Shown: one piece after another, positions 26,239-27,641 of the stretch | Position numbering within the stretch: the first letter of the stretch is position 1 | Layout of the letters: each line of letters starts with the position of its first letter | Source: Dehalococcoidia bacterium | GTDB lineage: Bacteria > Chloroflexota > Dehalococcoidia > Plut-88900 | Length of the DNA stretch: 64,000 bases | Assembly: GCA_965197585.1 (NCBI GenBank) | Contig: OZ240215.1 | Coordinates: forward strand, 1,824,001 to 1,888,000 | Direction: 5' to 3' | Made by a program: the position numbers and the translations under genes | Notes under the pieces: model-generated | What the model saw: the letters and a program-made list of their open reading frames with translations, nothing else | The model's database searches: none | Told to the model about the DNA's origin: nothing

Positions 26239-26404
26239 GATCGCATCTCCTTTTCTGGATCAGTCTCTTCAGCCATAATCATTATACATCCGTTCACCCA
26301 CCCCCCGCCCTGACACCCCTCATTAGACACTCCCTCCCTCCCTTCTTTCTCGACTCCGATCGGGAATCCATACCGCAGGGTGGGGCCGCTCACCCTTGTA
26401 TATT

Positions 26405-26545
26405 AGCAAGGACATCGGGATAGGCCGAATCATCCTAGGTCAAGAGACCGTTGCTCAGCGTGGTCGTCCCGACACTCCCAAAGTAGAGCCCGAACAGTTG
26501 CCTGGGCTGGAGCAAGCCCGCATCAGCAAGGATGGGTCAAAGGAG
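26405..26545 (+). ncRNA. Predicted IS110 bridge RNA
   Basis: Two stem-closed internal loops whose guides match the target (TCATCCT, TGCTCAG) and the donor junction (ACAGTTGC, CAAG); ends approximate. Confidence 0.85.
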
Positions 26546-26551
26546 AGAGGG

Positions 26552-27493
26552 ATGACTAATCAAGGGAAAGCATACGTAGGGATAGACATATCCAAGGGGT
26601 GGGGGGATGTGGTGGTGAGGACCACGGGAGAATCGTGGCGCTTCAATCAGGACGAGGAGGGTATAAAGGATCTGGTAGACCGCCTGGCGGCCTTGCAGCC
26701 GACATTGGTGGTGATGGAGGCCACGGGAGGCTATGAGAGGGCCGTAAGAGAGGCTCTGAGGGGTAAGGCCCCGGTGGCCGTGGTGAACCCGAGACAGGTC
26801 CGGGACTTTGCCCGCTCACAAGGGATGCTAGCCAAGACTGACAGGCTGGACGCAGCCATGATCGCCCACTTTGCCGAGGCAAGCGACCTCGGCCCACAGC
26901 CTCCCAAGAGCCCGCAGTTCCTTGAACTGGACGCCTTGGTATCCAGGCGACGGCAGCTCATAGGGATGAGGACTGGTGAGCAGAACAGGCTGCATGGTGC
27001 AGACCCCGTGGTAAAGAAGAGTATAAAGAAGATGGTGGATGCGCTGGACGAAGCTATCCGCGAGATAGACCGGCAGTTGAAGGACCTGCTGCACAAGTCC
27101 ACCTCCTGGAGTGAACAGGTCATGCTCCTGACAACCGTACCTGGGATAGGCCCCGTGGCAACATGCACACTCCTGGCCGGCCTGCCTGAGCTGGGCCAAC
27201 TCAATCGCAGAGAGATCGCCGCCCTTGTAGGCGTAGCCCCTCTGGCCCGGGACAGCGGCAAGATGCGAGGTCCCCGCACCTGTTGGGGCGGGCGGGCTTA
27301 TGTCAGGGCTGCCCTCTACATGCCCACCCTGGCCGCTGTCCGCTTCAATCCAGTCCTCAAGCAGTTCTACGACCGCTTGGTCGAGGCGGGCAAACCGAAG
27401 AAAGTCGCCATCACAGCATGCATGAGAAAGCTCTTGACCATCCTTAACTCTATGATCAAAACCCAGTCTCCTTGGAGCCCTGTTCATGCTTGA
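26552..27493 (+). CDS. IS110 family DEDD recombinase/transposase
   Basis: [22 protein letters not shown] (DEDD), [13 protein letters not shown] (Tnp-domain Ser); RBS AAGGAG before ATG 26552. Confidence 0.95.
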
Positions 27494-27641
27494 CTATCAA
27501 CACAGTTGCTGAGCAGAGTCGAAGGGTCGAGCGGAGGGGGCTCACGAAATACCAACTGGCTGCCTCCCACCCTCCAAACCCTTAATGGACACTCCATGAC
27601 CTATAGGTTAGATTACGCTCGAACCTACCCCCCGCTCACCC

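Follow-up and report, generated by a model that had tools for sequence, protein, structure and literature searches.

Here, we describe an insertion sequence (IS) in a 64,000-nt stretch of DNA (the window, in whose positions all coordinates are given) from a Dehalococcoidia bacterium (Chloroflexota; contig OZ240215.1). Judging from the sequence, positions 26397-27508 are very probably an intact IS110-group element of the IS621-like, bridge-recombinase type, inserted at a CT dinucleotide inside one copy of a repetitive extragenic palindromic (REP)-like repeat. We observed the anatomy of such an element, homology to known family members, a conserved RNA structure, agreement of the guides with both flanks and donor ends, a promoter that appears in silico only in the circular form, and insertion polymorphism between genomes. 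The element adds a new member to a known kind of system: the literature already covers bridge RNAs, the targeting of REPs, promoters formed at the junction and handshake guides. A preliminary description of this DNA, made from the letters alone, had proposed the bridge-recombinase architecture of IS621, and protein homology, covariation, the tracking of flanks by guides and the handshake bases all agree with it. The rarity implied there was not borne out, as the architecture is already in the literature and an NCBI model already names the family 'RNA-guided transposase'.

The element is 1,112 bp long and has no terminal inverted repeats; it combines a long left end of 155 nt (26397-26551) with a short right end of 15 nt past the stop codon, and is flanked by CT at 26395-6 and 27509-10. 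Its left junction reads ...GCCGCTCACC-CT-TGTATATTAGC... (26385-26407) and its right junction ...CAACACAGTTG-CT-GAGCAGAGTCGAAGGG... (27498-27526), the left end beginning with TGTATATT... at 26397 and the right end closing with ACAGTTG at 27508. All ends, guides, stems and promoter hexamers named in the preliminary description are present in the sequence at the positions it gave. It had also noted CT at both ends and a repeat restored on removal of the element, and both the repeat family and IS-free orthologous loci agree with this. In G002, a genome of the same genus with flanks 92-95% identical, the orthologous intergenic region is IS-free and reads ...gccgctcacc-TT-GAGCAGAGTCGAAGGG. The locus of G005 (flanks 97-99% identical) is IS-free as well and has about 20 extra bases directly after CT (a 'long-form' repeat), and in G003 and G001 even the repeat is absent from the orthologous locus. 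The same IS-free long-form allele was found in a 1,182-nt contig of the public run X3 (record 21), where 26396 is joined to 27512 via 22 other letters. The occurrence of IS-free alleles in close relatives indicates that the insertion is polymorphic and that its ends lie where they had first been placed. Joints with 7-28 letters in between, which were considered as the empty site in runs X1, X3 and X11, were rejected because they are other copies of the repeat. As a separate observation, the insert of about 20 bases in G005 (L125, about 1479-1500) and in record 21 of run X3 is small and hairpin-like and begins exactly after the CT of the IS site.

The single long open reading frame (ORF) inside the element, whose biologically sensible start is the ATG at 26552, matches Pfam DEDD_Tnp_IS110 (PF01548, 7.3e-27, residues 9-149) and Transposase_20 (PF02371, 5.1e-19, residues 192-273), and reaches 240.2 bits against a cut-off of 140 with the NCBIfam equivalog NF033542, 'IS110 family RNA-guided transposase'. 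A phmmer search of all PDB chains gave two matches only, both near full-length (from residue 7 or 8 to 308 of 313): ISCro4, also called IS622 (9t56, residues 7-308), which is the best match to a solved structure (2.8e-36, 128.7 bits), and IS621 (8wt6, 1.1e-33). In the phmmer alignment with 8wt6, residues D12, E56, D97, D100 and S235-G236 stand opposite D11, E60, D102, D105 and S241-G242 of IS621, among which D11, E60, D102, D105 and S241 were reported to be essential (Hiraizumi 2024, PMC11208158). The alignments support the identification of the protein as an IS110 RNA-guided transposase homologous to IS621 and ISCro4. A search of plasmid proteins matched IS110-family transposases only, at no more than 50% identity.

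To characterize the RNA, left ends of relatives were collected from the genomes of the genus and from 80 loci of a species-level genome collection, in which 600 stretches matched, 519 of them encoding relatives, and the best 80 were kept. The nearest relatives in this collection, mostly from Dehalococcoidia metagenome-assembled genomes, are 76% and then 61% identical to the window IS. A covariance model (R1) was built from an alignment of 32 left ends, that of the window included, and a search of 100 sources with R1 yielded 101 matches in 67 distinct rows. Rows were dropped when they covered the same places of G003 as L014-L037 (L043-L047), had no donor-loop motif by regular expression (L079), lay on short contigs (L105-L107, L114 and L115) or duplicated the window or other loci (L001, L002 and L005-L013).

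RNAalifold predicted 27 consensus pairs from the MAFFT alignment of the 32 left ends, 13 of them with compensatory changes. Over the 67 distinct rows, 96.9% of the cells hold standard pairs versus 79.8% after shuffling, and none of 500 shuffles reached the observed value of any measure; double changes occur in 21 of the 27 pairs, and pairing was 35-49% when partners were slid as a control. These double changes affect 12 of 12 pairs in helix 1, three of four in helix 2, two of three in helix 3 and all four in helix 5. Four helices are well supported; they form the outer and inner stems of two stem-loops, each with an internal loop, and give the two-loop structure drawn in the preliminary description. 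The alignment of the 67 rows is fitted to R1 and thereby biased towards the structure; the independent MAFFT/RNAalifold result agrees. The remaining predicted helix (UUGC/GCAA), which would pair the left with the right donor guide inside the second loop, shows no compensatory change and has 18 unpaired cells at one pair, and its bases are accordingly read as guides and not as a helix. The R1 match in the window (Table 1) is partly by construction because the window's left end is among the 32 seed sequences. Across the genome that contains the window (G000, one contig of 3.43 Mb), R1 gave nine matches, one per IS110 copy, with no orphans.

Evidence for a guide function comes from the comparison of loop bases with flanking DNA. 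The columns homologous to window positions 26428-36, 26450-58, 26494-502 and 26521-30 were taken from the R1 alignment, and guides swapped between different elements served as the control. Element ends were resolved in 93 of the 101 matches, giving 83 unique sites with 54 distinct guide pairs; the others were L071, L073, L077, L082, L117 and L118 (no left or right end by rule), the second match in L076 (no right end) and L112 (at a contig edge). On the left flank, the guide match was 0.76-0.88 at positions -5 to -1 (control 0.26-0.56), 0.47 at -6 (0.22) and 0.13 at -7 (0.18); on the right flank, it was 0.73-0.92 at +1 to +5 (0.24-0.31) and at background level at +6 and +7. Matching is thus confined to -5(-6)..-1 and +1..+5, and the clade appears to read 5(-6)+CT+5. 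The preliminary description had assigned the target guides to the first loop, and it is exactly these positions that co-vary with the flanks; its left guide TCATCCT is correctly placed, and in this clade only 5+CT of the left guide is used. The core-reading AG of the right target guide is invariant (83/83), and 63 of the 83 sites have at most two mismatches over the ten non-core positions (none in 13, one in 31 and two in 19). Where the loop bases differ between close recombinases, so do the occupied sites (GAGCA, GAGGC, AACCT, GGATT, GTAGG and ATCCA).

The window IS, at its site TCACC-CT-GAGCA, matches its guides at nine of ten non-core positions (four of five on the left, five of five on the right), and the tenth, at -2, is an rU.dG wobble. 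A coincidental match could be imagined in a GC-rich, repeat-rich genome in which the flanks are themselves repeats and guides are as short as 5+2+5. We give practically no credence to this explanation: the guide positions were fixed by homology, the 9/10 target match is joined by an 8/8 match of the left donor guide, the target match alone has a chance of about 3e-5 (hand arithmetic), and the same columns match in 83 sites, which effectively refutes coincidence.

It might also be supposed that the left end is a structured 5' leader regulating expression of the recombinase, the protein itself reading the repeat and the guide matches being incidental. A Shine-Dalgarno sequence and ATG directly after the second stem fit such a leader, and the high conservation of the donor loop would be expected of a site bound by protein. 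However, the loop bases vary with the flanks over 54 guide pairs and fall to background when guides are swapped, close recombinases with different loop bases occupy different sites, the handshake bases described below follow their non-cognate partner, and the mechanism has been established biochemically and structurally for the homologous IS621 (PMC11208160, PMC11208158). We consider a mere leader highly improbable and continue with the left end as a bridge RNA.

Among the mismatches, a guide U facing a DNA G is the most frequent type on the left (20 of 70) as well as on the right (20 of 78); these counts come from related sites that are not independent. It had been suggested that the U of the left guide would cover both TCATC and TCACC, and the sister element of G003 agrees with this: with one identical left guide, TCAUC, it occupies two TCATC and two TCACC copies of the repeat. 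These observations support an rU.dG wobble by which the left-guide U would cover both forms, as a tendency and not as a measured tolerance.

The donor guides agree with the ends of the element. The left donor guide is identical to ACAGTTG, the right end, followed by the core's C, as had been proposed. For the right donor guide, the CAAG pointed out earlier (26527-30) is part of the guide, and its restriction to these four bases is not upheld, because the guide comprises nine nucleotides (AUCAGCAAG, 26522-30). The same layout was described in IS621, whose right donor guide consists of A157-U158, two flipped-out bases, G161 opposite T, and C162-G165 (Hiraizumi 2024, PMC11208158). Among the relatives, AU accompanies the left end TGTAT and AC the left end TGTGT; CAAG, UAAG and CGAG accompany left ends that start with TG, TA and CG, respectively; and the left donor guide varies along with the right end (ACGGTTG, ACAGTCG, ACAATTG, ACAGCTG and ATGGTTG). 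A donor string of IS621 given in the preliminary description could not be confirmed; it has no occurrence in the text of Durrant 2024.

Further support comes from the handshake bases, which in IS621 are complementary to the non-cognate DNA according to the rule of Hiraizumi 2024 (PMC11208158). In 82 of 83 unique sites, the base that follows the right target guide on its 3' side can form a Watson-Crick pair with donor position 7. For the base that follows the right donor guide, the partner is target position 7, with Watson-Crick pairing in 73 sites and wobble in six more. Neither base is ever Watson-Crick to its cognate DNA (0/83).

When the two ends are joined in silico, right to left, the junction reads TTGACT-17-TATATT and scores 10/12 versus at best 6/12 in the integrated context, and a promoter scan of the integrated element found no promoter-like site upstream of the RNA; the circle-only promoter claimed in the preliminary description was thereby reproduced. 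At least 9/12 is reached by 33 of 57 distinct junctions of relatives versus one of 57 integrated contexts, and the -10 hexamer starts at left-end position 3 in 39 of these 57 junctions. The RNA would start near 26411, about 7 nt after the -10 hexamer, and be about 130-140 nt long; such a start leaves 4 nt before the first stem, so the RNA would lack a 5' stem-loop of the IS621 type.

Taking the steps over from IS621, a working cycle can be proposed. Excision would join the right end to the left end, and the junction would build a sigma-70 promoter (TTGACT-17-TATATT) driving first the compact bridge RNA and then the recombinase mRNA. The second internal loop would hold the donor junction ACAGTTG-CT-TGTAT by means of ACAGUUGC and AU..GCAAG, the DEDD/Ser recombinase would exchange strands at the CT core, and once the first strands have been exchanged, the handshake bases C26459 and G26531 would pair with the non-cognate ones. 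That the window IS is transcribed, forms circles, is catalytically active and still moves today is thus predicted from its parts, and the element is presumably programmable.

Genome G000 contains 55 strict-pattern copies of the target repeat family, 46 short and nine long, with the consensus GGGGCCGCTCAcCCTGAG....TCGAAGGGTCGAGCGgGGGG.GGCC and arms (GCTCACCCT and AGGGTCGAGC) that are near-complementary as read from the sequence; the copy occupied by the window IS is intergenic. The motif TCAYCCTGAG occurs 84 times in the genome, versus about 14 expected from base composition (hand calculation). Five intact copies reported in the window were confirmed, their motif CTCAYCCTGAG starting at 43029, 43286, 45973, 48354 and 50760, that is, 2-3 nt above the approximate positions given before. 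Two unoccupied copies elsewhere read GCCGCTCATCCTGAGCAGAGTCGAAGGGTCGAGCGG, identical to the reconstructed site except for C/T at -2. A search of the window with the whole reconstructed empty site (up to three mismatches) gave no match, the loop of the family being variable; matches were obtained with shorter patterns and with regular expressions. TCAYC-CT-GAGCA is found at 15 sites in G000, 14 of which are within the repeat family, and TCAYC-CT-GAGGC at 14 sites. We also observed that the plus strand of the G000 contig holds 12 of the 15 GAGCA sites and eight of the 14 GAGGC sites, and that the composition of the whole 3.43-Mb contig, on the given strand, is asymmetric (C 0.308 versus G 0.284). 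A second related repeat (GTTCGCCCTGAGCGGAGTCGAAGG...) is located at window positions 42906-42944 and 43187-43203, about 100 nt upstream of two intact family copies, in a duplicated block of about 260 bp.

Besides the window IS, which is present once, G000 carries one decayed copy (76% identity) and seven IS110 relatives (49-51% identity), and in G003, of the same genus, a sister element (77% identity) is present in seven copies whose left ends are identical. The sister element and the decayed copy resemble the window IS in protein (76-77% identity), in length (1,113 bp), in donor, promoter and target repeat family, and in the core of the left target guide (TCAUC or TCACC). However, the right target guide of the sister is GCCUCAG (CT-GAGGC) in place of UGCUCAG (CT-GAGCA), and five of seven right flanks of sister copies read GAGGC. 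Four of the seven lie in the same repeat family (...gctcaYc-CT-gaggcYctcgaagggtcgagcg), and the other three at partly matching sites (ttccac-CT-ggggc, ctctcc-CT-gaggct and gccatc-CT-ggggg). Thus, with right guides UGCUC and GCCUC, the two lineages address different sub-variants of one repeat family. We tentatively consider, without holding it to be probable, that two diverged lineages split a genus-wide REP-like repeat by the right target guide alone (15 GAGCA and 14 GAGGC sites), the left-guide U covering TCATC and TCACC by wobble, and that the window IS, if active, would be a naturally minimal bridge system that lacks a 5' stem-loop, has an RNA of about 130-140 nt and reads a symmetric 5+CT+5 code.

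The decayed copy (G000:C1:2221807-2222918; L002 1500-2612, minus strand) has a stop codon and frameshifts. Its guides (TCACC-CT and CT-GAGGCAC) are perfect for the commonest repeat variant of G000. Its left flank (TCACT versus TCACC) fits, and its right flank, TGTATTC, misfits and resembles the start of the left end. The copy is located in the 3' part of a gene for an fn3/PKD-repeat protein, whose ORF is lengthened from 265 to 317 aa by in silico removal. Its site counts as an off-target or half-matched one in the sense of the half-match preprint. One sister copy shows a different peculiarity: in front of L025 (1299-1340, G003) stands a duplicate of the first 38 nt of that copy followed by CT, which ends exactly at the left-target-guide DNA (gaTTCATC-CT), and the guide DNA of the element itself seems to have acted as the left half-target.

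The seven more distant relatives form a second IS110 lineage (G000:C1 1396102, 2811667, 3413435, 2899864, 974530, 1486145 and 2797125; loci L027, L035, L031, L039, L005, L004 and L003), which targets another host repeat, ...GTCATTCCGAGGCCCCGCGAGGAAT-CT-AGGACTTGCC, with guides that fit (AGGAAUC and CUAG/CUAA). Its left end begins TGTGTGACG, and it has no sigma-70-like junction promoter (5/12).

Several points weigh against an intact, working bridge-recombinase element. Because the sequences of the relatives lack independence, the shuffle statistics make the evidence look stronger than it is. The minimum free energy structure fits the fold drawn earlier, but its energy is unremarkable (z = 0.32; of 200 shuffles, 129 fold equally well or better) and is therefore no evidence. 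An Rfam scan of 25800-28200 (E up to 10) reported no bridge-RNA family and no family at threshold; its sole match was sX15, on the minus strand, with 18.9 bits versus a gathering score of 55. The agreement of the donor guides is partly circular, because the left donor guide, together with a short list of motifs, was used to find the ends of the relatives. The allele of the closest relative, G005, differs from an exact empty site by about 20 bases after CT. The only close second copy in the genome is decayed and occupies a non-repeat site whose right flank mismatches its right target guide. No circle junction, transcript or recombination product was seen among the four public runs, which were available as contigs only, and inside the element the RNA run X20 contains only 40-nt pieces with four differences (90-95% alike) that come from relatives and are therefore no evidence of expression of the window IS, although it covers the neighbouring ispH part exactly. 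Finally, the one-contig genome has one intact copy though 15 matching sites are free, five of them with a perfect TCATC, which suggests low activity or recent arrival.

Some of these points would also suit a genuine bridge-RNA element that is resident and no longer moving, through a silent circle-only promoter or an unseen defect, its guide match recording one past event. The single intact copy beside 15 unoccupied sites, the decay of the second copy, the lack of a consensus promoter upstream of the RNA in the integrated state and the absence of a circle or transcript from the contigs of public runs are all in line with it. On the other hand, the ORF is intact with all five catalytic residues, as are all guides, handshake bases and promoter hexamers, the sister element has reached seven copies with identical left ends in G003, and the locus is IS-free in genomes with 92-99% identical flanks, which makes the insertion evolutionarily recent. 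An immobile resident is thus possible but doubtful to us.

The features of the bridge-recombinase element, as read from the window, are collected in Table 1. On one side it is flanked by ispH/lytB (minus strand, 25297-26238; Pfam LYTB, 2.5e-89) and on the other by a gene for a family III CoA-transferase (plus strand, 27642-28829; 5.7e-89), and is thus intergenic.

Table 1. Predicted features of the IS110-group element and its insertion site (window positions)
Feature	Position	Strand	Details
Left arm of interrupted REP-like repeat (GCCGCTCACC)	26385-26394	+	Left target TCACC = 26390-94
CT core, left copy	26395-26396	+	Left-target/left-end junction; CT in 83/83 unique related sites
Probable IS110-group insertion sequence	26397-27508	+	IS-free loci in G002, G005 and run X3 contig record 21
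-10 hexamer TATATT	26399-26404	+	17-nt spacer in junction = 13 nt + CT + TG
Putative bridge RNA (R1 match)	26405-26547	+	120.4 bits, E 3e-32 (partly by construction); full model; only match in window
Target-binding loop stem-loop	26415-26472	+	Outer stem TCGGGAT 26415-21/GTCCCGA 26466-72 plus 26423-26/26462-65
Left target guide UCAUC + CU	26430-26436	+	Sense of target top strand, pairs with bottom strand; site TCACC-CT
Inner hairpin of target-binding loop, GGTC-AAGA-GACC	26438-26449	+	GGUC 26438-41/GACC 26446-49
Right target guide UGCUC + AG	26452-26458	+	Reverse complement of CT-GAGCA; 5/5 non-core positions plus core
Handshake guide, target-binding loop (CG)	26459-26460	+	C26459 complementary to donor position 7 (G27508)
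Donor-binding loop stem-loop	26489-26536	+	Outer stem CCC 26489-91/GGG 26534-36
Left donor guide ACAGUUGC	26494-26501	+	8/8: right end ACAGTTG + C of core; DNA form ACAGTTGC
Inner hairpin of donor-binding loop	26504-26519	+	GGGC 26504-07/GCCC 26516-19
Right donor guide AU[CA]GCAAG (AUCAGCAAG)	26522-26530	+	9 nt; matches CTTG.AT
Handshake guide, donor-binding loop (GA)	26531-26532	+	G26531 complementary to target position 7 (C26394)
Shine-Dalgarno-like AAGGAG	26540-26545	+	6 nt upstream of ATG
Recombinase gene, 313 aa	26552-27493	+	ATG 26552, stop 27491-3; catalytic D12, E56, D97, D100, S235
-35 hexamer TTGACT	27490-27495	+	Overlaps stop codon; usable only with right end joined to left end
CT core, right copy	27509-27510	+	Sequence
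Right arm of interrupted repeat (GAGCAGAGTCGAAGGGTCGAGCGG...)	27511-27545	+	Sequence, repeat family and orthologous loci

The closest published model is IS621 of Escherichia coli, whose bridge recombinase and bridge RNA architecture has been described (Durrant 2024, PMC11208160; Hiraizumi 2024, PMC11208158). The comparison was made via the protein alignment and published guide positions. Both elements combine a DEDD RuvC-like domain with a Tnp domain carrying the catalytic Ser, all five catalytic residues being aligned, and in both the core is CT, the left end long and the right end short. The left end encodes the RNA, in which the target-binding loop precedes the donor-binding loop and each loop surrounds an inner hairpin; left guides are in top-strand sense and right guides are reverse complements. 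They also share a left donor guide of 8 nt and a split right donor guide of 9 nt, two bases of which are unpaired. In both, handshake bases follow each right-hand guide on its 3' side, the junction reconstitutes a promoter, and the insertion lies in a REP-type repeat. IS621 itself reportedly targets REP, an observation said to go back to Choi in 2003. On the other hand, the window IS protein is distant from that of IS621 (phmmer 120 bits, E 1e-33), and a DNA search of 5,426 E. coli genomes gave no match. The left end has 155 nt versus 191 bp in IS621, the target code is 5+CT+5 versus 7+CT+2, the donor is ACAGTTG-CT-TGTAT, and the host belongs to Dehalococcoidia. A longer right target guide was noted for some orthologues, and a 5' stem-loop was described for IS621 and 103 orthologues (Durrant 2024, PMC11208160), whereas the window IS, with its predicted start 4 nt before the first stem, would have no room for one of the IS621 type.

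Other relatives have been studied as well. ISCro4/IS622 is an enterobacterial orthologue that was engineered for human cells (Perry et al., 10.1101/2025.05.14.653916). ISPpu9 and ISPpu10 of Pseudomonas putida are REP-targeting IS110 members (PMC12288879; 10.64898/2026.03.19.712850) and resemble the window IS as IS110-family elements at one defined REP position; they differ in host phylum and repeat, and in the ISPpu9 branch the RNA lies downstream of the transposase gene, whereas in the window IS it lies upstream. In the inspected part of the matching literature on IS110 or bridge RNA, no mention of Dehalococcoidia was found.

A side observation concerns the Rfam family sX15 (RF02234), whose weak match covers window positions 26397-26560 on the minus strand, opposite the bridge RNA. 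The family was defined on plasmid pXCV183 (plus strand, 116378-116536), together with a complementary asX7 (PMC3300014). On this plasmid (NC_007507, about 116387-116530; L123 1888-2031), R1 gave a minus-strand match with 68.6 bits (E 2e-19), followed by the first codons of an IS110-type ORF (MNGIGIDV...), which is then broken off. Rfam sX15 therefore appears to be modelled on the strand opposite an IS110 bridge RNA.

Taken together, a bridge RNA could be read guide by guide from raw sequence, and the reading survived a blind comparative test. The known mechanism is unchanged by the window IS; its value is that of a candidate orthologue and of annotation. It adds a so far uncharacterised clade with a compact RNA and a 5+CT+5 code, found in Dehalococcoidia and other environmental genomes and possibly already contained in the orthologue tables of Durrant 2024. 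It further adds independent support from natural elements for handshake guides, support from natural sites for tolerance of rU.dG, a lead on the strand of Rfam sX15, and a sister pair whose guides differ exactly where their targets differ, a natural swap experiment. If the tentative view of a minimal, active system sharing a split repeat is true, the element would be usable as an orthogonal recombinase.

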